Source: an uncultured Stakelama sp. (GTDB lineage Bacteria; Pseudomonadota; Alphaproteobacteria; Sphingomonadales; Sphingomonadaceae). Taken from it: 64,000 nt of DNA. Below the pieces are notes generated by a model. It had not been told where the DNA came from and ran no database searches. It saw only the letters and a program-made list of their open reading frames with translations. Shown here piece by piece: positions 1,346-30,266 of this stretch; positions within the stretch are counted from its first letter, which is position 1, and each line of letters starts with the position of its first letter. A program made the position numbers and the translations under genes. Where the stretch lies: contig CAZXBM010000008.1 in assembly GCA_964638495.1 (NCBI GenBank), forward strand, positions 18,343 to 82,342, read 5' to 3'.

Positions 1346-1696
1346 TCATCGGCTCAGGCCTTCCAGCGTCTTACTTGCCTTGCCACCGATCACCTCGACG
1401 GCTTCGAGCGTCATCAGCCCAATGTCGGGTACATCGCTCAGGGCGGCGACGAACGCGCGCAATGCGTCCTCGAAATCGACGATTTCGATTACCACGGCCC
1501 GATCACTCTCAAGCACATGGCGGCGGTGGACGTGCGAAGATGCCCCGAACCCGATCAGCGCCTCAAGCACGGTTAGGCCAGCCATCTTTCGATCACGCGC
1601 CAGCGAAGCCACATATTCGAAAACCTTCCGGTCGCCGATGTAAGCCGATTCATCTGTGTAGATCCGCAGCAGTTTCCGAACCGGTTGTGCCATCAT
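1346..1696 (-). CDS. DUF190 (UPF0166, PII/CutA-like fold) protein
   Basis: 116 aa: KLLRIYTDESAYIGDRKVFEYVASLARDRKMAGLTVLEALIGFGASSHVH...AVVIEIVD matches the DUF190 pattern. Its ATG overlaps the czcA-1 stop (ATGA at 1693-1696). Confidence 0.75.
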   Translation of the reverse strand: MMAQPVRKLLRIYTDESAYIGDRKVFEYVASLARDRKMAGLTVLEALIGFGASSHVHRRHVLESDRAVVIEIVDFEDALRAFVAALSDVPDIGLMTLEAVEVIGGKASKTLEGLSR

Positions 1697-4600
1697 GCTT
1701 CTCCTTTTAAGGGGGCCGGTTCATCGCCATGCGGCGTGCCAACCTCTTGCTCTTTTTGATTATCGGTCCGCCCGAGGATCACTTTCGCGAGCGCCGGCAG
1801 CACGAGCAGGGTGAGGATCGTTGCCGCAATCAAGCCGCCGATCACGACCGTCGCAAGCGGCTTCTGGACCTCGGCGCCGGTGCCGTGCGCTAGCGCCATA
1901 GGCACGAAGCCGATTGCCGGCACGAAGCCCGTCATGATCACCGCCCGCATCTTCTCGGCCATGCCTTCGCGGATCGCCTCCGCGATCGGCAGTCCAGCTT
2001 CGCTCCGGTCCCGGATCGCTGTCATGACGACGAGCCCGTTCAGCACCGCCACGCCGGCGAGGCAGATGAACCCCACCGCCGCTGACACCGAGAAGTTGAT
2101 GCCCGTGAGCAGAAGCGTGAAGACGCCGCCCGCGAGCCCCAACGGAACCGCCAGAAACACTGCCGCCGCCCGGCCGAATCCACCAAGCGCCATGTAAAGC
2201 AGCCCGAAGATGACCAGGAAGCAAAGTGGCACCACGATCGATAGCCGGTTCGATGCTGCTGCCAGGTTCTCGAACTGACCACCCCATTCGAGGTAGTAGC
2301 CCGCCGGTAGCTTCACCTGTGCGATCTTGGCCTGCGCCTCCTGCACGAACGAACCCGCATCGCGTCCGCCGAGATTGACCTGAACGACCACACGGCGCTT
2401 GCCGTTTTCGCGGCTGATCTGGTTCAGTCCTTCCGTCAGCCGGATTTGCGCGACTTGCGCGAGCGGCACCTGAGCGCGCGGCCGTCCTTCGACCTCGGGC
2501 AGCAGCACCGGCAGCGTCCGGATGTCGTCGAGGTTCGCACGCGTCGCCTCGGGCACGCGTACAGTGACATCGAACCGTCGATCGCCCTCGTATACAAGCC
2601 CCGACTCACGTCCGCCCAGGCCGGCTGCAACCGTATCCGCAACGTCGCGCACGGTGAGGCCGAGGCGCGCGATCGCTGCGCGATCGAGTCTCACGTCAAG
2701 CGCTGGCGCACCACCGACCTGCTCCGCTTTGACGCTCGCCGCGCCAGGTATCGTCTGGAGTACCCGCACCATCTCATTTGCGGTCAGCGCCATCTTGTCG
2801 AGGTCATCGCCATAGAGCTTGATCGCAACATCGCCGCGAACGCCAGCGATCAACTCGTTGAACCGGAGCTGGATCGGCTGACTGACCTCGTAAAGATTGC
2901 CGAGCAGCCCACCAGTTGCCTTTTCAATCTTGGCGACCACGTCGGCTTTGGTCGTACCTTCCGCCCATTCCTCCTTCTCTTTTAAGATAACGAAGCCATC
3001 CGAAACGTTCGGCGGCATTGGGTCGCTTGCAACTTCCGCAGTGCCTGTCTTCGAAAACATCAAGGCGACTTCGGGAATTTTAATTACCGCCTCCTCGACC
3101 TTGCGTTCCATCGACAGCGATTGATCAAGGCTGACAGAGGGCACGCGCGTCGACGCGAAGGCCAGATTCTTCTCATCGAGCTGTGGAATGAACTCCGAGC
3201 CTAGCAGGCCAAACGCAGGAATTGCCGCCAGGAAGAAAGCCAGGCCACCCAAGATGAAGGGCCACGGGCGCGCAATCGCTTGATCCAGCAACGGTAGGTA
3301 GCGCTCCTTGGACTTGCGAATCAGCCAAACGTCCTTTTCGGCGACCTTGCCGCGGATCAGGATCGCGACCAGTGCCGGCACCAACGTGATCGCGAGCAGG
3401 AACGCGGCCGCCAACGCCAGCATGATCGTAATTGCCATCGGCGAGAACGTCTTGCCCTCGGTGCCGGTAAAAGTGAGCAGCGGTGCGAACGCGAGCAGGA
3501 TGATCGCCTGGCCGAAGACGGTCGGCTTGATCATCTCCTGCGATGCCCGCATCGTCTCCTCGAGTCGTTCGCGAAGCGAGAGCAGTCGGCCTTCATGCTC
3601 CTGCCGGTGCGCCAGTCTGGCGAGGCAGTTTTCGATGATGATGACGGCGCCGTCGACGATGAGACCAAAGTCGAGCGCCCCCAAGCTCATCAGGTTGCCG
3701 GGCACGTTGAAGGCGTTCATCCCCATTGCCATCATCAGGAACGAGAATGGGATGACCAGCACCGCGATCACCGCCGCGCGCCAGTTGCCGAGCAACAGGA
3801 ACAGCGCCACGGCAACAAGGATCGCGCCTTCGGTCAAGTTACGCTGGACCGTGGCCACCGTGGCGCCGACCAACTCCGCGCGATTCAGCACCACCTTCAC
3901 CTCAACGCCCGGCGGCAGCGTCTTCGCCACCTGATCGAGCTTGGTAGAGGCCTCCGTGGCAACGACCCGGCTGTTCTGGCCGATCAGCATCAGCACTGTG
4001 CCGATGACCGCTTCCTGGCCGTTCATGCTACCGGCACCGGTGCGCAAGTCTCCGCCAACCCGGACGTTCGCTATTTGGCCGATGGTAATCGGTGTTCCTC
4101 CGCGCGTCGTCGCAACGGCATTGCTAATCTCATCGACGGTCCGCACGCGGGAGTCGACGCGCACAAGGTACGCTTCACCACCGCGGTTGTAGTAATTGGC
4201 GCCGACCGCGAGATTCGCGTTCTCGAGAGCTTGACCGAGTTCGCTGTACGAGATGCCGAAACTCGCCAGCTTCGTCGGATCGGGTTCGACCACGAACGTC
4301 TTGGCATAGCCACCAATGGAGTCGACGCCGGCAACGCCTTTCACCGACCGAAGCTGGGGGCCGATAATCCAGTCTTGGACAGTTCGCAGATAGCTTGCCT
4401 TGGCCACCACGTCCGTTAGTCGTTCGCCTTCGGGCGTCAGATAACTGCCATCAGGCTGCCACCCTGGCTGGCCTGCGACCTTCTTGGCACCCTTGCCGTC
4501 TGGATTGGCATAGCCCACCGTATACATGACGATCTCACCGAGACCGGTGGAGACCGGTCCAACCTGCGGCTGCACACCGTCCGGCAAATTTTCGGTTGCC

Positions 4601-4947
4601 TGACGCAGACGCTCACCAACCTGCTGGCGCGCGAAGTAGAGGTCGGTGCTGTCGGTGAAGATCGCACTGACCTGGCTGAAGCCGTTGCGCGAGATTGAGC
4701 GGGTCGTTTCCAGACCAGGGATGCCGGCTAGAGCGATTTCGATGGGATAGGTAACGAGTTTCTCGATTTCGACCGGCGACAAACGCGGGTCGATCGTGTT
4801 GATCTGAACCTGATTGGTGGTGATATCTGGCACCGCGTCGATTGGCAGCTTCGTAAGCTGCCAAACGCCGAGGCCGCCGATGACTAGGAAAAGGGCGAGT
4901 ACCGTCCAACGCATGCGGACGGAGAGCGCCATGAGATTTGCGATCAT
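1693..4947 (-). CDS. czcA: CzcA/CusA-family heavy-metal efflux RND pump (HME-RND, divalent-cation type), copy 1
   Basis: 1084 aa with 12-TM RND layout. TMH4 reads LDFGLIVDGAVIIIEN, the DFG-DGA-VEN signature of divalent-cation HME-RND pumps. Sits immediately downstream of the adaptor gene. Confidence 0.95.
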   Translation of the reverse strand: MIANLMALSVRMRWTVLALFLVIGGLGVWQLTKLPIDAVPDITTNQVQINTIDPRLSPVEIEKLVTYPIEIALAGIPGLETTRSISRNGFSQVSAIFTDSTDLYFARQQVGERLRQATENLPDGVQPQVGPVSTGLGEIVMYTVGYANPDGKGAKKVAGQPGWQPDGSYLTPEGERLTDVVAKASYLRTVQDWIIGPQLRSVKGVAGVDSIGGYAKTFVVEPDPTKLASFGISYSELGQALENANLAVGANYYNRGGEAYLVRVDSRVRTVDEISNAVATTRGGTPITIGQIANVRVGGDLRTGAGSMNGQEAVIGTVLMLIGQNSRVVATEASTKLDQVAKTLPPGVEVKVVLNRAELVGATVATVQRNLTEGAILVAVALFLLLGNWRAAVIAVLVIPFSFLMMAMGMNAFNVPGNLMSLGALDFGLIVDGAVIIIENCLARLAHRQEHEGRLLSLRERLEETMRASQEMIKPTVFGQAIILLAFAPLLTFTGTEGKTFSPMAITIMLALAAAFLLAITLVPALVAILIRGKVAEKDVWLIRKSKERYLPLLDQAIARPWPFILGGLAFFLAAIPAFGLLGSEFIPQLDEKNLAFASTRVPSVSLDQSLSMERKVEEAVIKIPEVALMFSKTGTAEVASDPMPPNVSDGFVILKEKEEWAEGTTKADVVAKIEKATGGLLGNLYEVSQPIQLRFNELIAGVRGDVAIKLYGDDLDKMALTANEMVRVLQTIPGAASVKAEQVGGAPALDVRLDRAAIARLGLTVRDVADTVAAGLGGRESGLVYEGDRRFDVTVRVPEATRANLDDIRTLPVLLPEVEGRPRAQVPLAQVAQIRLTEGLNQISRENGKRRVVVQVNLGGRDAGSFVQEAQAKIAQVKLPAGYYLEWGGQFENLAAASNRLSIVVPLCFLVIFGLLYMALGGFGRAAAVFLAVPLGLAGGVFTLLLTGINFSVSAAVGFICLAGVAVLNGLVVMTAIRDRSEAGLPIAEAIREGMAEKMRAVIMTGFVPAIGFVPMALAHGTGAEVQKPLATVVIGGLIAATILTLLVLPALAKVILGRTDNQKEQEVGTPHGDEPAPLKGEA

Positions 4948-4950
4948 GGT

Positions 4951-6117
4951 CTATTCTTCCTCGCCCGCGCCCTTGCCGAGTTCGGCTTTGAGCAGGAATG
5001 CGTTCTTCGTTGCGACCTGGCTACCTGCTGGCAGTCCCCTGAGGATCTCGACACGGCCGTTGCTGCGTTGACCGATCGTCACGGTCTGTGCTCGAAAGCC
5101 TTTCGGCGTACGAACAAACACGATGTCGCGACCATCAAGGGTCTGAACCGCCTCTTCCGGGACGACGATCGCGCTTGACGTGCTGCCACGGCTGGGGAGC
5201 AGCCTTACGCGTACCGCGAGACCCGGCTGAAGCGTGCCGGATACATCGAGGACGGCAGTCGCTGAACGCGTATCGTTGGCTAGCCCCGGCGTAACGGCGC
5301 GCACCCTCGCCTCCACCGTCCGGCCATCAGGCAGCTCGATAATCGCCCGATCACCTGGCGAGAGCCGCTGCGCATCGGTTGGTCCGACAGCAGCCTCTAC
5401 TTGTATCTTCGATGCATCGGCGACGCGCATCAGCTCGGTCTCGGGCTGGACGAACGCGCCCAGGCTGACATTCTCCGAGGTGACACGGCCCGAAATCGGG
5501 CTCGATACTAGGACACCGCGACCGTCCGATGTCACGCGCGCGGCCCCCGCCGCCACGCTGGCACGGCGCGCCTCTGCGGCGGCCGATGCGGCTTCCGCCT
5601 CCGCCTGCTCCAGTTCGACCCGCGCCGAGACCTTTTGGCGGAACAAATATTGCTCACGGGCGAGCGCCTTTTGCGCGAGCGTCGACTTGGCAGCGGCAGC
5701 GGTACGATCGGCTGCAAACTGCGCCGCGTCCCGACTCTCGACGATCGCCAACGTCTCACCGGCACGCACCGGATCACCAAGGCGCTTCATCAGCCGCGTG
5801 ACTGCGCCAGCTGCGCGGGCAGTCACGATCGCTTCGCCTTGCGGCGAGGCGCTCACCGTCGCCTGCGCGACGATCTCCGCGCCGAGCCCGCCGGGATTGA
5901 TCGTCTCGGTGGCGATGCCGGCCTGCTGGACCGCCTGCGCGGTCATCGCCACCGTGTCGGGCGCTTTTTCCTCTTCTGCCGGGGCAGCGGCGTTGCCGCT
6001 TGCCGCTTCGGTCGCGGCAGGGTCGCTCGCAGTCCAGCGTGCGATCCCGAAGCCGCCAAGCGCGGCGACGATCGCGACAGCCGCCGCACCGCCAAGAAGG
6101 CGTTTATCTTGAATCAT
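4951..6117 (-). CDS. czcB: efflux RND periplasmic adaptor (CzcB-like), copy 1
   Basis: 388 aa with an N-terminal TM/signal, an Ala-rich coiled-coil hairpin (AEAEAASAAAEARRA) and a beta-barrel C-terminal region. The 5' end overlaps czcC-1 by 4 nt. Confidence 0.9.
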   Translation of the reverse strand: MIQDKRLLGGAAAVAIVAALGGFGIARWTASDPAATEAASGNAAAPAEEEKAPDTVAMTAQAVQQAGIATETINPGGLGAEIVAQATVSASPQGEAIVTARAAGAVTRLMKRLGDPVRAGETLAIVESRDAAQFAADRTAAAAKSTLAQKALAREQYLFRQKVSARVELEQAEAEAASAAAEARRASVAAGAARVTSDGRGVLVSSPISGRVTSENVSLGAFVQPETELMRVADASKIQVEAAVGPTDAQRLSPGDRAIIELPDGRTVEARVRAVTPGLANDTRSATAVLDVSGTLQPGLAVRVRLLPSRGSTSSAIVVPEEAVQTLDGRDIVFVRTPKGFRAQTVTIGQRSNGRVEILRGLPAGSQVATKNAFLLKAELGKGAGEEE

Positions 6118-7466
6118 CGATCATCTCCGGAAATCGTGGGGGCCGGCGTCGTGAGCCGGTCGAGCCGCGCCTGCGCGTCATGATATGCGGCGAGCGCGTC
6201 GACGTAGGTCTGGCGGGTCTGTGAGAGGGTCCGCTCGGCATCGAGCAGCGCGATCTGGTCGAATTTGCCCTGCGTCCAACCGATCCGGGCGATGCGGGCG
6301 GCTTCCTGTGCCGCCGCCAGTCCCGGTCCGCCCGCCGCCCGCGCGGTCGCGGCGGCGTTCGCCACTTCGGTTTGCGCGCTAGCAATCTGCTGGCGGGTGT
6401 CGATCACGGCGAGGTTGCGCAGCGCGATCGCCTGCGTCTGTTCGGAGCGCGACTGCGCTACGAACGCGCTGCCGTTGTTGAAGAACGGGATCGGGATCGA
6501 GATGCCAACCACCGCGGCAGTGTCGTTGGTCGCCTCCAATCGGCGAGCGAAGGTGCTGACGGTCAGGTCGGGCACGCGCAGCGACCGTGCGACGCGCACT
6601 TGCGCGTCGGCGGTCCGCACGTCCGCTTCCGCCGCCGCCAAGGCCAGCGTCCCTTCGACCTCGATCGGCCGTGGCGGCCCGTAGCCATCGATCCGCTCGA
6701 ACCAGGCTCGATCGAGCGGCCCCGTCACCGGCGCCGACAACAATGTCTCAAGATTAGCCCGCGCCGCCTGTGCTTGGCGAGCGGCGCTCTCGGCCGCGAC
6801 CTGCGCGTTGATGCGCAACACATCGGCCCGCTGTTGTTCGATCGGGCCGACGTCGCCGGCCTTGACGCGCTCGCTCGAGACCCGAAACGCATTATTCGCG
6901 ATCGCGGCCTGCTCGCTCAGCACTTCGGCACGCCGCTCGGCTGCGGCGGCTTCGATATAGAGCTGCGTGATCCGCAGCCGGAGATCCGCTCGCGCGATTT
7001 CCGACTGGACCTGCGCCCTAGTGAGGCGGGCGGTCGCCAGCGCGACACGCGCCGGGCGTTTGCCGCCCAACTCCAATGGGAGCGACACACCGACCGTCGT
7101 TTCGGAACTTCGTAGCCCCTTATAAACGCCAGTGCCGCCGATATTCTCAACCTGCGCCTGCAACTCGGGATTGGGTCGCAACCCTGCGACCCGACGTGCG
7201 GCGGTTGCAGCATCGACGCCAGCAGTCGCCGCTGCGACCGATGGGAGGGGAGCAGGGCTGCTACCTCCGGCTGAGACGCCATTGGCCATAGCCGGTGAAG
7301 GCGTCGATGGCATGCCGCCGGCCGCAAGCGCGTTTTCCAGCGAGAACGTATCCGCCGTTTGTGACGAAGTGGTCGCCGCCGGAATGCCGGGCGGCGGTGC
7401 TGTCTGCGCCCCGGCCGTACTGGCTAGGGTCGCCGCGACCATGACGGCCGCGATTGTACGATACAT
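6114..7466 (-). CDS. czcC: TolC-family outer membrane factor (CzcC-like), copy 1
   Basis: 450 aa with signal peptide MYRTIAAVMVAATLASTAGAQ and two repeated OEP-type helical halves. First gene of a C-B-A order. Confidence 0.9.
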   Translation of the reverse strand: MYRTIAAVMVAATLASTAGAQTAPPPGIPAATTSSQTADTFSLENALAAGGMPSTPSPAMANGVSAGGSSPAPLPSVAAATAGVDAATAARRVAGLRPNPELQAQVENIGGTGVYKGLRSSETTVGVSLPLELGGKRPARVALATARLTRAQVQSEIARADLRLRITQLYIEAAAAERRAEVLSEQAAIANNAFRVSSERVKAGDVGPIEQQRADVLRINAQVAAESAARQAQAARANLETLLSAPVTGPLDRAWFERIDGYGPPRPIEVEGTLALAAAEADVRTADAQVRVARSLRVPDLTVSTFARRLEATNDTAAVVGISIPIPFFNNGSAFVAQSRSEQTQAIALRNLAVIDTRQQIASAQTEVANAAATARAAGGPGLAAAQEAARIARIGWTQGKFDQIALLDAERTLSQTRQTYVDALAAYHDAQARLDRLTTPAPTISGDDR

Positions 7467-7530
7467 AAATGGTGACTCCTGACGAACCGAGTTCCCCCCG
7501 CGCGGAATGGCCGGCGGGGTCAGCGGATCG

Positions 7531-7881
7531 TCAGGCTTGCGGCGGCCTCAGCGCAGGGTTGGCCGTCGAGAGCGGACGCATGGAATGACTCGCGAAGATC
7601 GGGGCGAGCCGAAGATCACCCGTTAGTGCGGTGTTTGTAGCCTTAACCGGCGCTGCGACGTGGTCGCCATGGCAACCGCCGTGATGATGAGGATACCCCT
7701 TGTCACCATCGGAGGGCACTTGATCGGAGTCGCCGGGCGCATGGCCCATGGCGACTTCGTCCACGCCGGTTTCATACGATGAAACGCTTACATCCGGCCG
7801 TTCCAGCACATGAGCCGTCGCCGTCGTCCCCAGGGAGAGGGCAATCGTCAAATAGGCAAGGATGTTTAGCAGGTGTCGCAC
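7531..7881 (-). CDS. small putative secreted His/Asp-rich protein (P1) heading czcCBA-1; C-terminus ALRPPQA
   Basis: In-frame GTG at 7881 gives M-RHLLNILAYLTIALSLGTTATA-HV, which is signal-peptide-like. The mature part has 7 His and 1 Cys (YPHHHGGCHGDH). Paralogous in layout to ORF 11576..11968. The start codon is uncertain, and the track ORF start at 8022 overlaps the CDF gene. Confidence 0.5.
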   Translation of the reverse strand: MRHLLNILAYLTIALSLGTTATAHVLERPDVSVSSYETGVDEVAMGHAPGDSDQVPSDGDKGYPHHHGGCHGDHVAAPVKATNTALTGDLRLAPIFASHSMRPLSTANPALRPPQA

Positions 7882-7949: not shown

Positions 7950-8603
7950 TCACCGCAAAATCTCGGACGAGACCGGGCGGGCTTCGCGCCACGCCGGGAT
8001 CGCCTCGGACAATACGTGCCACGCCGACCGCAGAAAGATGATCGCGATGACACCGCCAACGACAAGATCGGGCCAGGCGGCGCCCGTCGCGCCGACTAGT
8101 CCGGCCGCGATCAGCACGCCAGTGTTCGATGCGACATCGTTACGTGAACATTCGAACGTGCTCGACATATTCACGTTCTCCGAGCGGAACCGCCATAGCA
8201 GCGCCAGGCAGGCCAGGTTGGCGACAAGTGCTGCGCTGCCGAACGCCAGCATTAGCGACGACGAGGGCGGCACGCCGTTGACGATCTTGTCAAAGATCTC
8301 GACCACCACCGCGATGCCGAAGACAAGGATGATGCCGCCCTTGGCGAGCGCCGCCCCGGCTTCCCAGCGAGGACCACGGCTCAGTGCATAGAGGCTGAGC
8401 GCATAGACGACCGCATCGCCGAGCATGTCGACCGAATCTGCCATCAGCGCGGAGGACCGCGCGGACACGCCGCCGCCGAACTCGGCCATGAACATCACGA
8501 AATTGATGACCATGACGACGATCAGCACGCGCCGCTGATCGGCTTTGCGGCCGAGCTGCGCGATCGTGTCGGCTTTCCTGGAGCAGCAATCGTCCGCCAT
8601 CAT
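7950..8603 (-). CDS. cation diffusion facilitator (CzcD-like), short form lacking the cytoplasmic C-terminal domain
   Basis: Start taken at ATGATG 8603 (MMADDCCSRK...), because the longer track start at 8639 lies inside the MerR operator. CDF TM-domain motifs are present (SALMADSVDMLGDAVVY; NDVASNTGVLIA). About 217 aa, ending right after TM6. Confidence 0.85.
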   Translation of the reverse strand: MMADDCCSRKADTIAQLGRKADQRRVLIVVMVINFVMFMAEFGGGVSARSSALMADSVDMLGDAVVYALSLYALSRGPRWEAGAALAKGGIILVFGIAVVVEIFDKIVNGVPPSSSLMLAFGSAALVANLACLALLWRFRSENVNMSSTFECSRNDVASNTGVLIAAGLVGATGAAWPDLVVGGVIAIIFLRSAWHVLSEAIPAWREARPVSSEILR

Positions 8604-8637
8604 GTCACTCGATTCGCGTGTGGGACACGCTATATGC

Positions 8638-8658
8638 ACCCTCTAGCAACTAGAGGGT
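8638..8658. promoter_or_regulatory. MerR-type operator dyad in the divergent CDF / merR promoter
   Basis: Perfect inverted repeat ACCCTCTAG-caa-CTAGAGGGT. On the minus strand it lies inside TTGACC-N19-CATATA, a 19-bp -35/-10 spacer that is the hallmark of MerR-activated promoters, about 30 nt upstream of the CDF ATG. Confidence 0.7.
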
Positions 8659-8664
8659 CAAGCG

Positions 8665-9066
8665 ATGAAAATCGGAGAGCTCGGGCAAGCCACAGGCACC
8701 AAGGTGGAGACGATCCGCTATTATGAGCAGATCGGCCTGCTGGCGGCACCCGCGCGCAATGCGTCGAACTATCGCGACTATGGAAAGGCTCATCTCGCAC
8801 GGCTGTCATTCGTGCGCCGCGCGCGTGACCTGGGATTTACGCTCGACCAAGTGCGCGAATTGCTGGGCTTGTCGGACGATCGCACGCAATCCTGCACGGC
8901 GGTCGATGTTATCGCGACGATCCATCTAACCGAGATCGACCGCAAAATTGCCGACCTTCAGGCGCTGCGCGGCGAACTCAGCCGACTTATCGGCGACTGC
9001 CGTCAAGGGACGGTCGCCGACTGCCTCATCATCGACTCCCTCGCCCCGGCCGGCCTGCCGCAATGA
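8665..9066 (+). CDS. MerR-family metal-responsive regulator, CadR/PbrR/ZntR-like
   Basis: 133 aa with an N-terminal HTH ([26 protein letters not shown]). Cys77, Cys112 and Cys120 match the CadR/PbrR-type Cys triad spacing. Divergent from the CDF gene. Confidence 0.9.
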
Positions 9067-9893: not shown

Positions 9894-10163
9894 TTACCAG
9901 TATTTGGAGATCGCCCGAAATTGCTCGATCGCTTGCTGCGGCCCTTCGCCTTCCTCCGCGTGAACCAGGCAATGGTCGATGTGATCGTTGATCAGCGCGC
10001 GCTTCGCGCTGGCGATCGCGTTCTCGACCGCCTGAAGCTGCTGGGCGATGTCGACGCATGGGCGTTGCTCCTCGATCATGGTCACGATGCTGCGAAGGTG
10101 GCCGGTCGCCCGGTTAAGGCGCTTGACGATCGCGGGGTGGCTGGAGTGCGCTGTGTGGGCCAT
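9894..10163 (-). CDS. CsoR/RcnR (DUF156) family metal-sensing repressor
   Basis: Internal ATG of track ORF 9894..10289 gives MAHTAHSSHPAIVKRLNRATGHLRSIVTMIEEQRPCVDIAQQLQAV...NDHIDHCL, 89 aa. Ligand fingerprint is His3-Cys36-His61-Cys65 (plus His64). Divergent from the MFS gene. Confidence 0.85.
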   Translation of the reverse strand: MAHTAHSSHPAIVKRLNRATGHLRSIVTMIEEQRPCVDIAQQLQAVENAIASAKRALINDHIDHCLVHAEEGEGPQQAIEQFRAISKYW

Positions 10164-10201
10164 TTTGAGTTCCTGACACGTCATGCAGCACGTGTCCATC
10201 A

Positions 10202-10219
10202 TATCCCCCATGGGGGATA
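10202..10219. promoter_or_regulatory. CsoR/RcnR-type operator (C5/G5 tract palindrome)
   Basis: Perfect 18-bp palindrome TATCCCCCA|TGGGGGATA. It lies 35 nt upstream of the MFS ATG (10254) and 39 nt upstream of the repressor ATG (10163). G/C tracts flanked by AT-rich inverted repeats are the known operator style of this family. Confidence 0.7.
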
Positions 10220-10253
10220 GACAGGCGGCCAGGATCAGTGGATAGGGGCGCCC

Positions 10254-11579
10254 ATGCTCGCAGTCCTCGCCAACCGCACCTATCGCCACCTATTCCTCGC
10301 GCAGATCATTGCGCTGATCGGGACGGGGCTGGCGACGGTCGCGCTTGGTCTGCTGGCCTATGACATCGCGGGCGGTGACGCGGGCGCTGTGCTGGGCACC
10401 GCGCTCGCGATCAAGATGATCGCCTATGTCGGTGTCGCGCCGATCGCTGGTTCCTTCGCCAACAAGGTGCCCCGGCGCGCGCTGCTTGTTGCGATGGACC
10501 TGATCCGTGCCGCCGTCGCGCTGTGCCTGCCGTTCGTCACACAGGTCTGGGAGGTCTATGTCCTGATCTTCGCGCTGCAGTCGGCGTCGGCAGCGTTTAC
10601 ACCGACATTCCAGGCGACCATCCCTGACGTGCTGCCCGAAGAGCGCGACTATACGCGGGCGCTGTCGCTGTCGCGGCTCGCCTATGACATGGAAAGCCTG
10701 ACCAGCCCGATCCTCGCGGCGGCGTTGCTCACGGTTATCAGCTTCCACTGGCTGTTCGCCGGGACCGCGATCGGCTTCGTCGCTTCGGCACTACTGGTGG
10801 TGTCGACCACCTTGCCGCGACCCAAGCCGGTCGAGGACGCGGGCGGCATCTACGACAAGACGACGCGGGGCACGCGCATTTACCTCAAAACGCCGCGCTT
10901 GCGCGGCCTGCTCGCGCTAACGCTGGCGGCGGCGGCGGCGAGCGCGATGGTGATTGTCAACACGGTGGTGATCGTGCGCGGGCTCGGCCTCAGCCAGCGC
11001 GACGTCGCGCTGACGCTGGCGGCGTTCGGGGGCGGGTCGATCACCGCCGCCCTGACGTTGCCGCGCATCCTCGATCGTGTTGCCGACCGCACCGTAATGT
11101 TGATCGCTGCCGCTCTTCTGACGCTAACACTTGCCGCGATGGCACTGGTCACCGTGACCATGGGAACGGCCGACAGCTATTGGTACATGCTGATCGCAGG
11201 ATGGATCGTCATGGGCCTGGCCTATTCGGCAAGCGTTACGCCTTCGGGTCGGCTGCTGCGCCGGTCGGCCAATGCCGACGATCGCCCCGCGCTGTTCGCG
11301 GCGCAGTTCGCGCTCAGCCACGTTTGCTGGCTCATCGCGTACCCCTTGGTTGGCCAGCTCGGCGCGCGGGTGGGCATGGCGGCAGCGTTTGGCGCGATGG
11401 CGGCCATCGCTGCTGTTGGCACGCTAGCGGCGGTCCGGCTGTGGCCGGCGAACGATCCCGACGTCGTAGCGCATGATCATGGAGACCTGTCGGCTGACGA
11501 CCCGCACCTGAAAGAGCATGAACGCGGGGATCATGCCTTCGTGATCGACAAGCGTCACCCCGATTGGCCTAAGGCGTGA
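10254..11579 (+). CDS. MFS transporter with His-rich C-terminal tail (NreB/NrsD-like, tentative Ni/Co exporter)
   Basis: 441 aa, 12-TM MFS. The tail VVAHDHGDLSADDPHLKEHERGDHAFVIDKRHPDW has 6 His in the last 45 aa. Paired with an RcnR/CsoR-family repressor. Confidence 0.8.
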   Translation: MLAVLANRTYRHLFLAQIIALIGTGLATVALGLLAYDIAGGDAGAVLGTALAIKMIAYVGVAPIAGSFANKVPRRALLVAMDLIRAAVALCLPFVTQVWEVYVLIFALQSASAAFTPTFQATIPDVLPEERDYTRALSLSRLAYDMESLTSPILAAALLTVISFHWLFAGTAIGFVASALLVVSTTLPRPKPVEDAGGIYDKTTRGTRIYLKTPRLRGLLALTLAAAAASAMVIVNTVVIVRGLGLSQRDVALTLAAFGGGSITAALTLPRILDRVADRTVMLIAAALLTLTLAAMALVTVTMGTADSYWYMLIAGWIVMGLAYSASVTPSGRLLRRSANADDRPALFAAQFALSHVCWLIAYPLVGQLGARVGMAAAFGAMAAIAAVGTLAAVRLWPANDPDVVAHDHGDLSADDPHLKEHERGDHAFVIDKRHPDWPKA

Positions 11580-11968
11580 GCGCGTTTCCCTTGCCGCAGC
11601 GCAGCACTCCGCATACACTACCCAGTGTGGCGCTCGTCCGACCCCGATCCGCCCCTTGGGGGTTCCTGCTCGCTCTGCTCGCCTTGATGACGATGAGCGC
11701 CGTATCGACATGGCACAATGCCAGCATTCACGACGACGACGCGGTCCACGCCGTTTCTGTCGCACACGAGCATGAGAAACAGGATTCGAGCGATCCCGAT
11801 GGCGCCGTGCACCTTACAGCGCACATGGTCGGGCAGAGCCTCGCAGTGCCTGATACAGCCGTCGCCCCGATCTATGAGGCGTCATTCACGACCAACTGGT
11901 CGGTGCCGCGTTCAGCCCTTAAAGCTGGCATCGATCCAACATCTTTACTGAGACCACCAAAGGCCTGA
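11576..11968 (+). CDS. small putative secreted His/Asp-rich protein (P2) heading czcCBA-2; C-terminus LLRPPKA
   Basis: 130 aa from a GTG overlapping the MFS stop (GTGA); an alternative GTG lies at 11627. Hydrophobic segment WGFLLALLALMTMSAVS, then 7 His and many Asp (IHDDDAVHAVSVAHEHEKQDSSDPDGAVHLTAHM). APIY and RPPKA motifs parallel P1. Confidence 0.5.
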   Translation: MSAFPLPQRSTPHTLPSVALVRPRSAPWGFLLALLALMTMSAVSTWHNASIHDDDAVHAVSVAHEHEKQDSSDPDGAVHLTAHMVGQSLAVPDTAVAPIYEASFTTNWSVPRSALKAGIDPTSLLRPPKA

Positions 11969-12025
11969 TCCCTGCCGCGCGCTGGGGGCGCGCCCGAGTC
12001 CAACTCGTGCAAGGATCACATCTCT

Positions 12026-13285
12026 ATGACCGACTTTATCAGCCGACGGCGCCTTGCGGCGCTGTTCGGCGGACTCGCGAGCGTGACGCTGGCGGGTCCA
12101 GCGTGGGCAGACCCCGCGCCACCTTTCGCTCTGTTACTCAAGCAAGCCGAGCAATCTCCCCGTCTCCAGGAGCTGGCGGCCGACGTCGATCGTGCGACGG
12201 GCCTGTCCGAGCAAGCCCGGGCGCGCCCCAATCCATCCGTGAGCGTCTATGCTGAGAACTTCGCGGGCTCGTCGCCCTATGCAGGGTTCGACCGGACCGA
12301 GACGACGATGCAATATAGCCAGCCGTTCGAGCTGGGCGGCAAAAGATCTGCGCGCATCGCCGCTGGCGAAGCCGGGGTGACGGCGGCGCGGGCGCGAGGA
12401 CTGCAAGGTCGCGTCGCCTTTGCCCATGATCTTGCGCGGGCCTATGCCGCCGTCGAACTCGCCGATCGGCGCATCACGATTGCCGAGGATGAAGTCGAGG
12501 AGGGCGAGGCCGACCTGAAACTCGCCCGCGCCCTGGTCGAAGCAGGCAAGGAAGCCCGCCTCCGCGCGCTGCAAGCCGAAACCGAACTCAACGCCGCCCG
12601 GGCCGTGCTGGAAAGCACGCGGGCGGCGCGCACGGCGGCGCTCGCTCGGTTGTCCGCGCTGGCCGGGGTGGAGACCCCCTTCACCGGCATTTCGGACTCT
12701 GTGCTCGATCCGCCAATGTCACGCGCCGCTTATGGGCCGGTCGATCCGCTCGGCACCACAAGCTATCTTGCCGCGCTGGCCGATCGGGAGGCTGCCGCAA
12801 AACGTGCAGCGTCCGAGCGCAAGCGTGCGATTCCCGACATTACTGGCCAGATCGGTGTGCGAAGGCTCGATCAGGACCGTGCAACCGCGCTGGTCGCCGG
12901 CATTTCGTTGCCGCTGCGCCTGTTCGATCGCAACCGGGGCAATATCGCCGCAGCCGACGCTGACCTGCGCGCGGCGGAGGCAAGGGCGGCGGCGGCACGG
13001 CTTGAAGCGACCGCCAATGTTCGCAGCGCCGTCGCGCTGGCAGAAGCCGCCGACGCCCGCGCCATCGCCGCAGAACGGACGATGGCGACGGCCGGGGAAA
13101 CCTATCGGCTTGCCCGCATCGCCTATGAAGCGGGCAAATCGCCCTTGAGCGAACTGCTCGTCGCCCGCCACGGACTGGGTCTGGCGCGTGGCGTCGTCGC
13201 CGATGCTGCCGCTGCCCGTTTCGATGCCCGTGCCCAACTCGCCAGCCTGAACGGCCTGGCCATCACCGGAGACCCGGTCCAATGA
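12026..13285 (+). CDS. czcC: TolC-family outer membrane factor (CzcC-like), copy 2
   Basis: 419 aa, paralogous to 6114..7466. Has a signal sequence and starts a C-B-A gene order. Confidence 0.9.
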   Translation: MTDFISRRRLAALFGGLASVTLAGPAWADPAPPFALLLKQAEQSPRLQELAADVDRATGLSEQARARPNPSVSVYAENFAGSSPYAGFDRTETTMQYSQPFELGGKRSARIAAGEAGVTAARARGLQGRVAFAHDLARAYAAVELADRRITIAEDEVEEGEADLKLARALVEAGKEARLRALQAETELNAARAVLESTRAARTAALARLSALAGVETPFTGISDSVLDPPMSRAAYGPVDPLGTTSYLAALADREAAAKRAASERKRAIPDITGQIGVRRLDQDRATALVAGISLPLRLFDRNRGNIAAADADLRAAEARAAAARLEATANVRSAVALAEAADARAIAAERTMATAGETYRLARIAYEAGKSPLSELLVARHGLGLARGVVADAAAARFDARAQLASLNGLAITGDPVQ

Positions 13286-14430
13286 ACGACAAGACACGCC
13301 TATACACCGGTGCCGCGATCGGTCTGGTCGCTGCCGCCGCGCTCGGCTTCGGTGCGGCTCGCCTGACCCAACCCGCGCCGCCCGCGCCCGAAACCGCCGA
13401 GGCGCCAAAAACCGCCGGGGATGCGGTCGAGATCGGTGCCGACGGCATCCGGATTTCGGGGATCAGGGTCGCGCCTGCCGCCGCCGGTGCGCTCGACGCG
13501 GCCATCCCCGCCGCTGCTATGGTGCAGGCGACGCCCGACGCGGAAGCCGTGCTAACGGCACGCGCGCCGGGCACCGTTACGCGCATCTTCCAACGAATCG
13601 GCGACGCGGTCCGCGTAGGCGATACGCTGGCGCTGGTGGAAAGCCGTGACGCGTCGACCATCGCTGCCGATCGCGCCGCCGCCTCGGCACGCGTTTCGCT
13701 TGCCTCGAAACAGCTGGCGCGGGAGCGGTCGCTGCTCGCGCAAGGCGTTTCGGCGCGGGCCGATTACGAGACGGCGCAGGCCAATCTCGCGGTCGCGCAA
13801 GCAGATGCCGGCCGCGCACGTGCCGCGGCTGGCGCCGTGCGGCTCGCCGCCGATGGCCGCTCGATCGCGGTCGTCAGCCCGGTCAGCGGCCGCATCACCG
13901 CCGCTACCGCCAGCCTTGGCCAGTTCGTCGCTGCAGAGACCGAGTTGTTCCGCGTCGCCGATCCGTCGCGGCTGCAGATTACCGCCAGCCTGCCGCCGGC
14001 CGATGCCCCGCGCGTCCGCACCGGTGACCGCGTGGAACTCACCACCAATGACGGCCAGACGATTGCTGGCCGGGTCCGCTCGGCGACCGGGGTGGTCGAT
14101 CGCGACACGCGCGGTGCAACGATTATCATCGAACCGAGCGCGGGCGGCAGTTTGCTCGTCCCCGGTCAATCGGTTCAGGCGCGCATCTTCGCCAGCGGCG
14201 GCGTGGCGCGTTCGGGCGTGATGGTGCCGCAGGACGCGGTCCAGACGCTTGGCAACCGCAGCGTCGTGTTCGTGCGCACCCGCGCGGGTTTCAAGGCGCA
14301 GACGGTCCAGACCGGCAGTCGCAGCGGCGGCATGGTCGCGATCATGTCGGGCCTCAGCGCGAGCACGCCGATCGCCACGACCAACGCGTTCCTGCTCAAG
14401 GGCGAAATCGAGAAGGAAACCGCAGAATGA
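13282..14430 (+). CDS. czcB: efflux RND periplasmic adaptor (CzcB-like), copy 2
   Basis: 382 aa, colinear with copy 1 (e.g. GDTLALVESRDAS vs GETLAIVESRDAA). 4-nt overlaps on both sides. Confidence 0.9.
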   Translation: MNDKTRLYTGAAIGLVAAAALGFGAARLTQPAPPAPETAEAPKTAGDAVEIGADGIRISGIRVAPAAAGALDAAIPAAAMVQATPDAEAVLTARAPGTVTRIFQRIGDAVRVGDTLALVESRDASTIAADRAAASARVSLASKQLARERSLLAQGVSARADYETAQANLAVAQADAGRARAAAGAVRLAADGRSIAVVSPVSGRITAATASLGQFVAAETELFRVADPSRLQITASLPPADAPRVRTGDRVELTTNDGQTIAGRVRSATGVVDRDTRGATIIIEPSAGGSLLVPGQSVQARIFASGGVARSGVMVPQDAVQTLGNRSVVFVRTRAGFKAQTVQTGSRSGGMVAIMSGLSASTPIATTNAFLLKGEIEKETAE

Positions 14431-17400
14431 TCGCGCGCATCCTCTCGCTCTCGGTGCGGATGCGGTGGGTCGTCGTCGCGCTCACCGCGCTGGTCGTCGC
14501 GTTCGGCGCGTGGCAAATCACGCTGCTGCCGATCGACGCGGTGCCCGACGTCACCAACCGTCAGGTTCAGATCAGCACCTTCGCGCCGACGCTGGGGCCG
14601 GTCGACATCGAGAAGCAGGTCACCTTCCCGGTCGAGACCGCGCTCGCGGGTATTCCGGGGCTTGAAATGACGCGTTCCTTCTCGCGCAACGGCTTCAGCC
14701 AGGTGACCGCCGTGTTCACTGATTCGACCAGCGTGTTCTTCGCGCGCCAGCAGGTCACCGAGAGGCTCGCCCAAGCCAAGGACAGCCTTCCGGTCGGCAT
14801 CCAGCCCATTCTCGCCCCGTTGAGCACCGGGCTGGGGGAAATCTTCTTCTATTCGGTCGCGTTCCGCCATCCCGACGGCAAGGGGATTAGGATCGTCGAC
14901 GGCAAGCCTGGCTGGCAATCCGACCGCAGCTACCTGACCCCAGAGGGAGAGCGGCTGACCACCGATCTCGCCAAGGCGGCCTATCTGCGTACCGTGCAGG
15001 ACTGGATCATCCGCCCGCAGATGCGCACCGTGAAGGGCGTGGCAGGCGTCGACTCCAACGGCGGCTATGTGAAGCAATATCTAATCGAGCCCAATCTCAA
15101 CGCGCTCGCCACCTATGGTCTGTCGATCACGGAGTTGGCGGACGCGCTCGAACGGGCGAATATGTCGGCGGGCTCGAACTATGTGCGGCGCGCGGGCGAG
15201 AGCTTTCTTGTGCGCGCCGATTCTAGGCTGAAATCGATCGACGATATTCAGGACGCGGTGGTCGCGACGCGCGGGGGTGCGCCGGTGCGCGTGCGCGATG
15301 TCGGGCAGGTCGTGATCGGCGGCGCGGTCCGTACCGGCTCGGGCAGCCGGATGGGGTCCGAAGCCGTCATCTCAACGGTGCTGATGCTGGTCGGCAGCAA
15401 CAGCCGCATCGTCGCCAACGCCGCGGGCGAGAAGCTGACCGAGGTCAACCGCTCGCTGCCAACCGATGTGTTCGCCGAACCTGTCTATAACCGATCAAAG
15501 CTCGTCAACGCGACCATAGCGACGGTCGAGAAGAACCTGACCGAGGGCGCGCTGCTCGTCATCGTCGTGCTGTTCCTGCTGCTCGGCAACATCCGCGCGG
15601 CGCTGATCACCGCGGCGGTCATTCCGATCACGATGCTGATGACGGCGGCGGGGATGAACGCCCTTAGCGTATCGGGCAATCTGATGAGTCTGGGCGCGCT
15701 CGATTTCGGGCTGATCGTCGATGGCGCGGTCATCATCGTCGAGAATGCGCTCCGGCGTCTTGCCGAACGGCAGGAGCATGAAGGCCGCCTGTTGACGCGC
15801 AACGAGCGGCTGGGTGAGGTGATGGAGGCGTCGCAGGAAATGGTGAAGCCGACCGTCTATGGCCAGCTCATCATCTTCCTCGTCTTCGTGCCGCTGCTCA
15901 CCTTCCAGGGCGTCGAGGGCAAGACTTTCGCGCCGATGGCAATCACGCTGATGGTGGCGCTTACCGCCGCCTTCGTGCTGTCGCTGACCTTCGTGCCCGC
16001 AATGATCGCGCTGTGCATTACCGGCAAGGTGAGCGAGACCGAAGTCATGCCGATCCGCTGGTTCAAGGAGCAATATGCCCCGATGCTGGCGCGCGCGGTG
16101 GCGCGGCCTCTGCCGTTCATCGCAGGCGGCGCGGGCGTGTTCGCCGCAGCGGTGCTGTGCTTTGGCTTGCTCGGCGAGGAATTCATGCCGCAGCTCGACG
16201 AGAAGGATATCACCGTCACCAATTTCCGCGTGCCCTCGGCCTCGATCGATCAGTCGACGCAGATGCAGTTGCGGATCGAGGATGCGCTGAAGACGCTGCC
16301 AGAAGTCGCGCTAGTCTTCTCCAAGAACGGCAATGCTGATCTCGGCACCGATCCGATGCCGCCGAACGCATCGGACACCTACGTCATCCCCAAACCCGAG
16401 AGCCAATGGCCAGCCGACGTGCGTAGCAAGGCCGATATCCTGGCGCGGATCGAGGCAAAGATGAAGCCGCTGATCGGCAATCGCACCGAAATCCAGCAAC
16501 CGATCCAGATGCGCTTCAATGAGCTGATCGCCGGTGTGCGCTCGGATGTCGCGGTCAAGCTATATGGCGACGATCTCGACCAGATGACTCAGCAGGCGCA
16601 ACGCATCGCGGCCACGCTCCGGGCGATCCCGGGCGCCGCAGACGTCAGCGCCGAACAAACCGATGGCGCGCCGACGTTCGACGTTAAAATCGATCGGCAG
16701 TCGGTGGCGCGCTACGGCCTGTCGGTCGAGGAGGTAGCGAACACCGTGGCCGCGGCGCTCGGCGGCCGTGAGGCAGGATTGCTGTTCGAAGGCGACCGGC
16801 GTTTCTCGGTCGTCGTTCGGCTCGCCGACGCACAACGCGATGATTTAGAGACGCTTGGCGCGATCCCGGTCATGCTCCCCGCCATGGAGGGGCAAGTCGC
16901 GCGCTCGATCCCGCTCCGCGAGGTGGCGCGGTTCAGCTATACGCAGGGGCTCAACCAGATCAGCCGCGAGAACGGCAAGCGGATGGTGGTCGTCCAGGTC
17001 AATGTGCGTGGCCGCGATCTCGGCGGGTTCGTGACCGAGGCGCAGGACCGGATCGGCAAGCTCGATTTGCCGCCGGGCATGTATACGGCATGGGGCGGGA
17101 CGTTCGAAAGCCTACAGTCGGCGCGGCTGCGGCTGATGATTGTGGTGCCGATCTGCTTCCTCGCGATCTACGGCTTGCTCTACATGGCGCTGGGGGGTTT
17201 CGTGCCCGCCGCGATCGTGTTCAGTGCGGTACCCATGGCGCTCGCGGGCGGTGTATTCGCGCTGCTTTTGCGCGGCATCCCGTTCTCGATCACGGCGGCG
17301 GTGGGTTTCATCGCGTTGTCCGGTGTCGCGGTTCTCAACGGTCTGGTCATGATGAGCGCGATCCGCAAGCATCGCGAAGACGGCGCGGACGAGGAAACGG

Positions 17401-28010: not shown

Positions 28011-28916
28011 TTAGTGCATTGTTGCCTCCGTTGCCATTGCCGCCTGGAGGTGGAGCGTAGCGGAACCGGAAGGCGGCAATGGCGGCGAAGCAGTTTCCGG
28101 GGCCGGCGGTCGATAGCCCAGGCTGCTATGGGGGCGAACGGTGTTGTAATGCCGCCGCCACGCCTCGATCAGCACCCGCGCTTCGGTGAGCGTGTAGAAG
28201 ATCTCGCCATTGAGTAGTTCGTCGCGAAGCGACCCGTTGAAGCTCTCGTTGTAGCCGTTCTCCCATGGCGATGCCGGGGTGATGTAGAGCGTCGTCACGC
28301 CGATCCGCGCCAACCATGTCTGGACCGCCGTCGCGATAAACTCGCTGCCATTATCGGACCTGATATTGGCAGGCGGCCCGCGTGCTATAAACAACTCGGC
28401 CAGAGCCGCCAGTACGTCTTCGTGTTTGAGCTGGCGCGCCACGATCAGCGCGAGGCATTCCCGGCTGGCCTCATCAATGATGGTCAGGATACGGAACTTG
28501 CGGCCATCATGGGTGCGGCCTTCGACGAAGTCATAGGCCCAGACGTGCCCCGGATATTCGGGGCGCAGCCGGATGCATGACCCATCGTTTAACCAGAGCC
28601 GTCCGCGTTTCGGTTGCTTCTGCGGCACCTTCAGCCCCTCGCGCCGCCAGATACACTCGACGCGTTTGCGGTTCACCGTCCATCCCGCATCGCGCAGCAA
28701 CGCCGTCACCCGACGATAGCCGTAGCGACCATATTGCCGCGCCAAGGCCACAATGTCTTCGGTGAGCGCCAGCTCATCATCGGCCCCGCGCGGTACCTTG
28801 CGCTGCGTCGATCGATGCTGGCCAAGAACCCGGCAGACCCGTCGTTCGGATACTGCCAGCTCGGTTCGTACATGATCAATGCAGCGCCGTCGGCGCGCGG
28901 GGCTCAGAAGTTTCCC
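28011..28916 (-). CDS. IS3-family transposase OrfB (DDE integrase), expressed by -1 frameshift from OrfA
   Basis: The track ORF 28011..29090 frame contains [30 protein letters not shown]...IRSDNGSEF...[17 protein letters not shown] (a DDE triad context). Slippery heptamer G_GGA_AAC on the coding strand at 28910-28916. Confidence 0.85.
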
Positions 28917-29690: not shown

Positions 29691-29821
29691 CCCACGCCCG
29701 CTATCGGGCTCCCAATTTCGGATGCGAACGCCGCAGGCATTGGCCGGGCTACGCAAGGATCAAGACATCGACCGGCCCGACCCTTGAGCGGCGGGACCGG
29801 CATGCATTCGAGGATTATATC

Positions 29822-30133: not shown

Positions 30134-30266
30134 CCCTCGACGGTGCCTTTTCGGTTTGAACACCGGCGAGGTACTTTGCGAACAGATTTGAGGGCCGCCT
30201 TTCGGGGCGGGCCTCATTTCCGTTTTGGCCGGATTTGCGGCTAGACCAGTATCCGGGGGATACTTC

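Follow-up and report, generated by a model that had tools for sequence, protein, structure and literature searches.

Three small open reading frames, designated P1, P2 and P3, head the three heavy-metal efflux (HME) resistance-nodulation-division (RND) pump operons found in the window analyzed here, a 64,000-nt stretch from an uncultured Stakelama sp. (contig CAZXBM010000008.1, positions 18,343 to 82,342). Each encodes a short polypeptide with a putative N-terminal export signal, a cluster of potential metal ligands and an Arg-Pro-Pro (RPP) motif a few residues ahead of the stop codon. By analogy with the CutF and CruR leader peptides, the most likely role of P1, P2 and P3 is that of regulatory upstream open reading frames (uORFs) acting in cis, and not that of stable periplasmic proteins, a reading to which we give a probability of about 0.6. 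P1, P2 and P3 are real, conserved leader genes that are tied functionally to their pumps. Coordinates are collected in Table 1.

A census of all six-frame open reading frames of at least 50 aa in the window (n = 466) shows RPP within the last eight residues in only three, and these are exactly P1, P2 and P3. Thus the RPP endings ahead of the three pump operons are not there by chance. The C-terminal sequences are ALRPPQA in P1, LLRPPKA in P2 and GLDRPPRTIV in P3, and both these endings and the positions of the three frames ahead of HME-RND operons are as an earlier note on this DNA had described. The same note placed each leader immediately before its operon. This holds for P1 and P2, with gaps to the next gene of 64 and 57 nt, but not for P3, where a conserved 103-aa open reading frame, starting 131 nt after the leader, lies in between. 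The longest reading frame of P1 extends to position 8022 and overlaps a cation diffusion facilitator (CDF) gene; the 116 aa form is the modal length among 152 homologs. The GTG start of P2 overlaps the stop codon of an upstream major facilitator superfamily (MFS) gene (9894–11579) as GTGA (11576–11579). A homolog of P2 at locus L090 has 105 aa and starts 73 nt past the MFS gene, and the start of P2 in the window is uncertain for this reason.

Conservation of the leader and its RPP ending ahead of related operons elsewhere, without which the idea of the earlier note would fall, is found for all three. At 90% identity there are 152 clusters in the P1 family, 8 in the P2 family and 32 in the P3 family, and gene order is kept; an exhaustive profile search places the P1 family at 328 clusters at 50% identity. 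With one genome scanned per species, 235 P1-family loci were found. Of these, 80 were kept for locus analysis, and most of the 80 are named Sphingomonadales, with few otherwise. The order leader, outer-membrane factor (OMF), adaptor, RND permease is present in nearly every one of the 80 that is long enough, at leader identities of 33–89% and with a leader-to-OMF gap of 54–71 nt (mode 65). P2-family loci show the order RcnR/CsoR-type repressor/MFS, leader, OMF, CzcB-type adaptor, RND. In the P3 family the order is leader, small open reading frame, OMF, CusB (with a heavy-metal-binding domain, HMBD) and CusA, and in one branch the leader is followed directly by the OMF gene. A metagenome scan for the P3 family gave 3 loci only, further loci being obtained from exact-protein look-ups, and a tblastn search of plasmids with P3 gave zero matches. 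Variants also occur in the P1 family. Some leaders, among L050, L057, L058, L069 and L073, are followed by adaptor and RND genes only, the OMF gene being missing. The L069 and L073 leaders end in LEPPRA, with Glu in place of Arg. The leader copy at L071 stops at 68 codons, past HHHGGCH, and is possibly a pseudogene.

In the alignment of each of the three families only the signal, the ligand cluster and the C-terminal RPP motif are conserved. The putative signal peptides, recognized by inspection, have hydrophobic cores and AxA-type sites (...TATA in P1 and ...PALA in P3), the N-terminal region of P2 being long or its start uncertain. The ligand consensus is GDxDQVPxDxDKGYPHHHGGCH for the P1 family, WHxAxIHDDDxxHAxSxxHxH...DPDxAxHLxAH for the P2 family and M-rich...CCDEKHKACxQAC for the P3 family. 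The C-terminal consensus is D-P-x-L-R-P-P-x-A in the P1 and P2 families and G-L-D-R-P-P-R in the P3 family, and the family variants of the motif are L/R/M/Q-R-P-P. Between the ligand cluster and RPP the linker is free in sequence and fixed in length. In the P1 family, 41 residues separate Cys from Arg and two residues follow Pro-Pro in all 173 members that have both motifs; in the P2 family the distance is 42 residues, again with two after Pro-Pro, in 8/8 members; in the P3 family it is 47 residues from C54 (43 from C58) in 28/31, with four residues after Pro-Pro in 31/31. The LAP(I/P) segment, which the earlier note had included in the shared layout, lies in this variable linker and is not conserved in the families.

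The mature part of the polypeptides appears unstructured. AlphaFold, run on P1 with the family alignment, gives the signal helix (residues 2–23) as the sole confident element, with a predicted local distance difference test (pLDDT) value of 58.6 and a predicted template modeling (pTM) score of 0.20. A folded periplasmic domain was rejected on this result. The predicted lack of structure fits an arrest leader, and CruR is reported to be likewise.

Alignment of the three proteins with one another by BLASTP gave no significant similarity, nor did hhalign comparison of the three family profiles. A larger hidden Markov model (HMM) of the P1 family gives weak matches in the P2 family (E = 1e-4 to 4e-3, with Z = 1000), and P1-P2 intermediates end in ADPASLLRPPRA. 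The alignment and HMM that the earlier note proposed thus give only a weak P1-P2 link, and one common gene family for P1, P2 and P3 is not claimed.

The ligand chemistry tracks the type of pump, as had been proposed. All three RND permeases match TIGR00914 (CusA/CzcA) with 1416, 1462 and 1349 bits against a cut-off of 701 bits. In transmembrane segment 4 (TM4) two of them show the DFG-DGA-(I/V)EN signature (DFGLIVDGAVIIIEN and DFGLIVDGAVIIVEN) and the third shows AIG-VDAA-IEN, and scores and signatures together bear out two divalent-cation pumps and one CusA-type pump. P1 and P2 had been credited with 7 His each; the counts are 9 and 8, respectively. P1 has a single Cys (in HHHGGCH) and P2 has zero. 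For P3 the 6 Cys and 2 His that had been counted are there, whereas the 7 Met refer to the mature part only, the total being 9.

The RNA analysis used 45 distinct intergenic sequences of the P1 family. These loci are related by descent, so the counts given here are not independent events. In minimum free energy (MFE) folds the CCUGA at the end of the leader pairs with the region of the Shine-Dalgarno (SD) sequence of the OMF gene in 42/45 loci, and the RNAalifold consensus of the 45 sequences is exactly the 8-bp anti-SD stem. In this stem 93.9% of cells are paired, vs 14–47% with the partner slid by 1–3 columns. Compensatory changes are present in the inner three pairs; the outer five pairs are invariant and hence uninformative. 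The stem encloses a hairpin in 45/45 loci, formed by 23 different helix sequences. The SD context GUCAGGAG is found in 39/45.

Codon choice at the end of the P1-family leader is also constrained. The last sense codon is GCC in 42 loci, ACC in 3 and GCG in 0, although GCG is the commonest Ala codon of the neighboring genes, and the stop codon is UGA in 45/45. The Arg codon of RPP is AGG, AGA or CGA in 34/45 loci, vs a background of about 12%, and CGG, with a background of 29%, is not used at all. The first Pro of RPP is CCU in 20/45 (background 7%), and Gln near RPP is CAA in 32 loci and CAG in 3. Rare codons are strongly enriched at and after RPP, with AGG, AGA or CGA for Arg, CCU for Pro, CAA for Gln and AUA for Ile, both in the window (7537–7548, minus strand) and in P1-family loci. 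In many of these loci CCUCC spans the Pro codons and is a possible second anti-SD segment.

A related arrangement is predicted for P3. The Pro-Pro-Arg codons UCCUCGAA (29672–29679) are predicted to pair about 130 nt downstream with UUCGAGGA, and the pairing is also predicted in homologous loci. When pairing of the stall site with the next SD was compared with that of other 18-nt leader windows in 5 loci, the proposed stall site ranked above every other window in 3 (WIN, L081 and L084) and surpassed at least 95% of them in the remaining 2.

These features suggest the following mechanism. The leader would be translated first, and its signal peptide would target it for export. On arriving at Arg-Pro-Pro, about 41–43 residues after making the ligand cluster, the ribosome would have the cluster just out of the exit tunnel, at or in the translocon. 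Metal bound to the nascent chain, by His/Asp(+Cys) ligands in the leaders of the two DFG-DGA pumps and by Cys/Met in that of the Cus-type pump, would prolong the intrinsically slow Pro-Pro step. If the pause places the first Pro codon at the P site, the ribosome would cover about 15–16 nt downstream. In P1 this footprint would include the codons for Pro, Gln and Ala, the UGA and one base past it, taking in all five invariant anti-SD pairs, and in P3 the anti-SD arm would lie in the A site and just beyond. The pause would free the OMF SD, and the pump operon would then be translated when its substrate metal is present. The need of the footprint to cover the anti-SD arm would account for the invariant number of codons after Pro-Pro. 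The arrest of translation at RPP, the modulation of the arrest by metal and the direction of that effect, and the compartment where metal would be sensed (periplasm or cytoplasm) are all modeled on CutF and CruR. The direction taken from CutF, with a longer pause and an opened SD in the presence of metal, is the sensible one for an operon that encodes efflux.

CutF of Rhodobacter capsulatus has a CxxxC motif, 45 residues and then EGPPPRL (PMC9973294). Copper on the nascent, co-translationally exported chain prolongs the stall at the Pro motif, which melts a stem-loop over the cutO SD, and elongation factor P (EF-P) counteracts the stall (PMC9973294; bioRxiv 10.1101/2025.02.05.636593). A survey of CutF-like proteins gave 5,334, with the RND OMF as the commonest downstream neighbor and some clusters that are His-only; its filters were size, Pro-Pro within 15 residues of the end and a same-strand metal gene within 1 kb, besides an N-terminal signal peptide and reach by iterative jackhmmer search from CutF seeds (PMC9973294). 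The three leaders fit the first three of these with 116, 130 and 108 aa, Pro-Pro at positions −4/−3 (P1 and P2) or −6/−5 (P3), and OMF-adaptor-RND genes following the gaps given above. They share with CutF a length under 150 aa, a putative Sec-type signal, a metal-ligand motif about 45 residues ahead of a Pro-Pro in the last 15 residues, and the place of first gene in a metal operon, followed by a short spacer with an SD-hiding stem-loop. This stem-loop is found for P1 (42/45 loci, RNAalifold and the slide control) and is supported for P3. P3 also has a CxxxC, and some family members end in PPPR, as CutF does (GPPPRL). However, the motif of CutF is PPP and that of P1, P2 and P3 is RPP. P1 and P2 use His and Asp, with one or no Cys, before DFG-DGA pumps, whereas the His-only clusters in the literature stand ahead of HupE/UreJ.

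CruR (Bp2923) of Bordetella pertussis has a CXXC motif, 45 residues and RAPP three residues before the end, and its regulation is abolished by mutation of RAPP or by a 5-residue change in spacing (PMC9426467). In vitro, the ribosome was shown to arrest while its P and A sites hold the two Pro codons (PMC12992588). The DUF2946 family is defined by CXXC and the C-terminal RAPP (PMC9426467). The leaders described here resemble this group as putatively exported small uORFs heading a metal operon, with a ligand motif, R..PP shortly ahead of the stop, a spacing held to within 1–2 residues, little predicted structure and a weak, recurrent HMM similarity. They differ from CruR in what is controlled, since CruR uses Rho-dependent termination to control an uptake receptor and its arrest is relieved by copper, while P1, P2 and P3 are proposed to unmask the SD in an efflux operon. 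The R-x-PP ending that the earlier note gave for DUF2946 proteins is real (RAPP, PMC9426467), but the leaders are not formal members of the family. Against the gathering threshold of 23.7 bits for PF11162, P1 and P2 give no match, and sub-threshold matches are seen in P1-family members (9/31 and 9/67, best E = 0.0018; P0077 gives 15.1 bits over positions 4–111 of 117). In place of CXXC, P1 has one Cys, P2 none and P3 CC plus CxxxC; in place of RAPP about 3 residues from the end there is L/D-R-P-P without Ala, 2 (P1, P2) or 4 (P3) residues from the end. The fixed spacing of about 45 residues has its counterpart in the 41 (173/173), 42 (8/8) and 43/47 (28/31) residues of the three families. Only this spacing, the putative export signal and the operon position agree with DUF2946.

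CopL of Xanthomonas and Stenotrophomonas (NF033807) is a cis-acting Cys/His-rich leader needed for copper-induced downstream expression, but it precedes the copA multicopper oxidase gene and not an RND operon. P3 scores 16.1 bits (E = 0.013) against the CopL_fam cut-off of 40 bits, and 6/28 members of its family match, with a best E of 7.2e-5. Pfam and NCBIfam searches with the leaders and their families gave nothing above threshold and sub-threshold matches to DUF2946, DUF6153, DUF7772 and CopL_fam. The recurring similarities are those to DUF2946 and CopL_fam, the families of CruR, CutF and CopL. Arrest peptides of the RAPP/RGPP type (ApdA and ApdP; RAGP in SecM) likewise carry Arg and then Pro-Pro close to the C-terminal end of a small exported open reading frame and control the next gene by arrest (PMC10951233, PMC12992588). 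The R-[A/G]-P-P sequence of these peptides is absent from P1, P2 and P3, where no residue stands between Arg and Pro-Pro, and ApdA, ApdP and SecM monitor the Sec/YidC machinery, not metals.

Several points weigh against the arrest-leader reading. The P1 sequence of the window is by itself unexceptional: the 116-nt fold has z = −1.52, and 9% of other P1 leader windows match or beat the SD pairing of the stop region. Support for the pairing therefore comes from conservation across loci. The covariation support is modest, as the outer stem is mostly invariant, and the conservation of the SD and of the Ala-stop codons could partly have other causes. In P3 the paired SD belongs to the small open reading frame, not to the pump, and the pairing is less clear in loci that do not have this frame. 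In P2 the predicted SD pairing is no better than that of control leader windows and was set aside as evidence. RPP differs from the characterized RAPP/RGPP and PPP motifs, and EF-P may erase a plain Pro-Pro pause. The C-terminal motif of CutF gave no arrest in an E. coli LepB reporter (PMC9973294). To judge from profile scores, the similarity to CutF, CruR and CopL stays below threshold, and no homology among the three leaders can be demonstrated, the P1-P2 link being weak. Sequestration of an SD by the end of an upstream open reading frame would also yield ordinary translational coupling, with no need for arrest. CzcI, the sole leader of a czcCBA operon to be studied, is reported as a periplasmic protein that quenches CzcCBA for Zn and Co (PMC10127602).

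The example of CzcI leads to the strongest of the other explanations, which is nevertheless unlikely: the leaders would be trans-acting periplasmic proteins whose mature polypeptides bind metal and quench, gate or feed the pump, with RPP as a docking or stability motif. CzcI and CzcI2 of Cupriavidus metallidurans resemble the leaders in position and layout, and the earlier note had likened the layout to CzcI-type leader genes. The pMOL30 czcI gene (L101:15177–15524) lies directly upstream of czcC and encodes an exported 115-aa protein with a signal peptide, the His-rich HLGHHEHRH, CGVCH and the C-terminus ARAPDRPQWQRLA. The ligand chemistry of the leaders fits the pump type under this explanation too, and a role in trans could coexist with one in cis. 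However, the resemblance does not extend to sequence or to the Pro-Pro motif. CzcI, with its C-terminus RAPDRPQWQRLA, has no Pro-Pro (PMC9973294) and is not significantly similar to the leaders. With the P1 family, hhalign aligns the signal peptide only (probability 34%) and the P1-family HMM gives E = 0.33, and CzcI was rejected as a homolog of P1 and P2 on this basis. Against DUF2946, CzcI scores 15.7 bits, the same sub-threshold level as P1-family members. CzcI also carries CGVC (CXXC) and a C-terminal ARAPDRPQ, which has the look of a decayed RAPP/RPP and is consistent with descent from an arrest-type leader. For the leaders themselves no fold is predicted, and a docking motif leaves unexplained the ruler, the number of codons before the stop, the frozen synonymous codons and UGA, and the SD pairing. 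A cis-acting arrest leader is favored over a periplasmic chaperone or gatekeeper because of the exact ruler, the fixed codons before the stop and the conserved SD pairing. The suggestion that the leaders are real, functionally matched components is thus upheld by the conserved families and their synteny, while a periplasmic sensor, chaperone or gatekeeper is less likely than cis-acting translational control.

Plain translational coupling is less probable again. Here the leader would be a short secreted or throw-away open reading frame whose termination opens the SD stem, and RPP and the ligands would have no part in arrest or sensing. The 5′ arm of the stem contains the stop codon itself, so that termination by any ribosome would open the stem; the GTGA overlap at the P2 start is typical of coupling; and the MerR-type and RcnR/CsoR-type regulators that adjoin the operons could supply all metal control. 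Coupling leaves unexplained the invariance of RPP, of the ligand motifs and of the 41-residue ruler in 173 members with a free linker, the enrichment of rare codons at the RPP site and the parallel with CutF and CruR, both of which have been dissected experimentally. A CruR-type logic is quite improbable. In it, a ribosome held at RPP would keep Rho or polarity from acting, and metal would tune transcription read-through instead of, or in addition to, SD unmasking, possibly in the reversed direction. CruR offers a precedent whose layout and spacing are the same (PMC9426467) and whose arrest has been confirmed (PMC12992588), and a Rho-dependent mechanism fits P3 better than P1 and P2 because the P3 spacers are long and structured (131 nt to the small open reading frame, then 133 nt with z = −3.67 and a terminator-like hairpin), but the P1/P2 spacers are short (57–65 nt vs 162 nt in CruR) and dominated by the SD stem, an intrinsic terminator was looked for after P1 and none was found, and relief of arrest by metal would turn the resistance pump off when it is needed.

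Table 1. Positions of the leaders, their segments and the adjoining operons in the window.
Feature	Position	Strand	Description
P1 leader open reading frame	7531-7881	-	116 aa, GTG start; signal peptide, His/Asp/Cys cluster, variable 41-residue linker, C-terminus LRPPQA-stop
P1 signal peptide	7813-7881	-	residues 1-23, MRHLLNILAYLTIALSLGTTATA; hydrophobic core and A-x-A by inspection; AlphaFold helix 2-23
P1 ligand cluster	7660-7743	-	H47...GDSDQVPSDGDKGYPHHHGGCHGDH74; columns invariant or near-invariant across the P1 family
P1 Arg-Pro-Pro codons	7540-7548	-	AGG CCG CCG, proposed arrest site; exactly 2 sense codons ahead of the stop
P1 anti-SD stem, 5′ arm	7528-7535	-	CCUGACGA; from the final Ala codon, the UGA and 3 nt beyond it (GCC UGA CGA)
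P1 anti-SD stem, inner hairpin	7494-7519	-	GC-rich; structure kept, sequence variable
P1 anti-SD stem, 3′ arm	7476-7485	-	UCGUCAGG (pairing bases at 7478-7485); overlaps SD AGGAG of the OMF gene (ATG 7466)
Pump operon 1	1693-7466	-	OMF 6114-7466 (ATG at 7466), adaptor 4951-6117, RND 1693-4947; DFG-DGA-IEN type
P2 leader open reading frame	11576-11968	+	at most 130 aa; hydrophobic anchor or signal; His/Asp cluster without Cys; ends DPTSLLRPPKA-stop
P2 Arg-Pro-Pro codons	11951-11959	+	AGA CCA CCA; 2 codons ahead of the stop
P2 predicted stop-SD pairing	11966-12018	+	UGAUCC with GGAUCA, overlapping SD AAGGA of the OMF gene (ATG 12026); weak
Pump operon 2	12026-17687	+	OMF 12026-13285, adaptor 13282-14430, RND 14427-17687; DFG-DGA-VEN type
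P3 leader open reading frame	29364-29690	+	108 aa; signal peptide (...PALA); Met/Cys cluster including CC and CxxxC (C54-C58); ends GLDRPPRTIV-stop
P3 Arg-Pro-Pro-Arg codons	29667-29679	+	CGA CCU CCU CGA A; contains UCCUCGAA, the 5′ arm predicted to pair with the SD of the next gene
P3 predicted pairing, 3′ arm	29807-29814	+	UUCGAGGA; SD region of the small open reading frame starting at 29822
Small secreted open reading frame between P3 and the cus-type OMF	29822-30133	+	conserved, 103 aa; motifs GYHWEYTPGPRGT...GHWR
Pump operon 3	30267-35895	+	OMF (probable ATG 30267)-31496, CusB-type adaptor 31493-32749, CusA-type RND 32746-35895

Directly upstream of P1 is the CDF transporter gene (7950–8639, minus strand), and nearby is a divergent gene for a MerR-family (CueR/CadR/ZntR-like) regulator (8665–9066, plus strand). 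The CDF gene recurs upstream of the leader in many P1-family loci, and thus the leader may sit inside a longer transcript. Around P2, the RcnR/CsoR-type repressor, the MFS gene, the P2-type leader and the RND operon are syntenic in L090 and L097–L098, which hints at a unit of the Ni/Co type. Upstream of P3 are two overlapping open reading frames (28011–29185, minus strand) that by eye resemble a two-part insertion-sequence transposase and end about 180 nt from the leader; the native promoter or regulator of P3 may have been replaced, and the upstream context of P3-family leaders differs at every locus examined. Consensus promoter and terminator scans were uninformative, and Rfam gave zero known RNA families anywhere in the window.

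The 103-aa open reading frame that follows P3 gives no Pfam or NCBIfam match. Counterparts of 102–107 aa with the motifs GYHWEYTPGPRGTARRVADR and GHWR are found at L084:6462–6785, L087:6465–6776 and L094:3478–3786. A small open reading frame stands between leader and OMF in most P3-family loci and is missing from one branch (L091–L093). The 133-nt spacer between this frame and the OMF gene (30134–30266, plus strand) is highly structured, with −67.1 kcal/mol and z = −3.67. It contains a terminator- or attenuator-like element, made of a GC-rich hairpin (GAGGGCCGCC...GGCGGGCCUC) with a U-rich tail after it, and a second hairpin, GUAUCC-GGG-GGAUAC, that covers what is probably the SD for the OMF start at 30267.

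A bolder form of the arrest-leader reading, which we put at somewhat less than even odds, is that the three leaders are modular nascent-chain metal sensors. A shared chassis of export signal, 41–43-residue ruler, RPP and stop-region anti-SD stem would carry interchangeable ligand cassettes: His/Asp/Cys for the Czc-type pump, His/Asp for the second DFG-DGA pump and Cys/Met for the Cus-type pump. The second DFG-DGA operon adjoins an RcnR/CsoR-type repressor gene, which suggests nickel or cobalt. RPP would then be a new, minimal ligand-gated arrest motif, and CzcI, with no Pro-Pro, a derivative that lost its role in cis.

The arrest leader as a kind is known already, and its extension beyond copper and to RND operons has been anticipated bioinformatically. 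In the literature searched, several features appear not to have been described: the large HHHGGCH family and the Cys-free His/Asp family heading DFG-DGA pumps, the RPP-x-x-stop motif together with its exact ruler, the conserved stem in which the stop codon serves as anti-SD, and three ligand chemistries next to one another on a single replicon. Two-component systems, extracytoplasmic function (ECF) sigma factors and MerR/RcnR regulators are the usual explanation for the regulation of czc/cnr/ncc-type pumps. To our knowledge, nascent-chain metal sensing has been demonstrated for copper only (CutF, CruR and probably CopL).

If the modular reading is true, gating of arrest peptides by metals other than copper would be seen here for the first time, and so would control of RND efflux pumps by such peptides. 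The three versions on one replicon would form a ready-made swap system for how a nascent chain reads metal identity, and would provide compact parts for metal biosensors. A translational layer would be added to heavy-metal resistance, one that reports metal where the pump picks it up, and the regular occurrence of small "hypothetical" genes at the start of these operons on mobile elements could be accounted for in this way.

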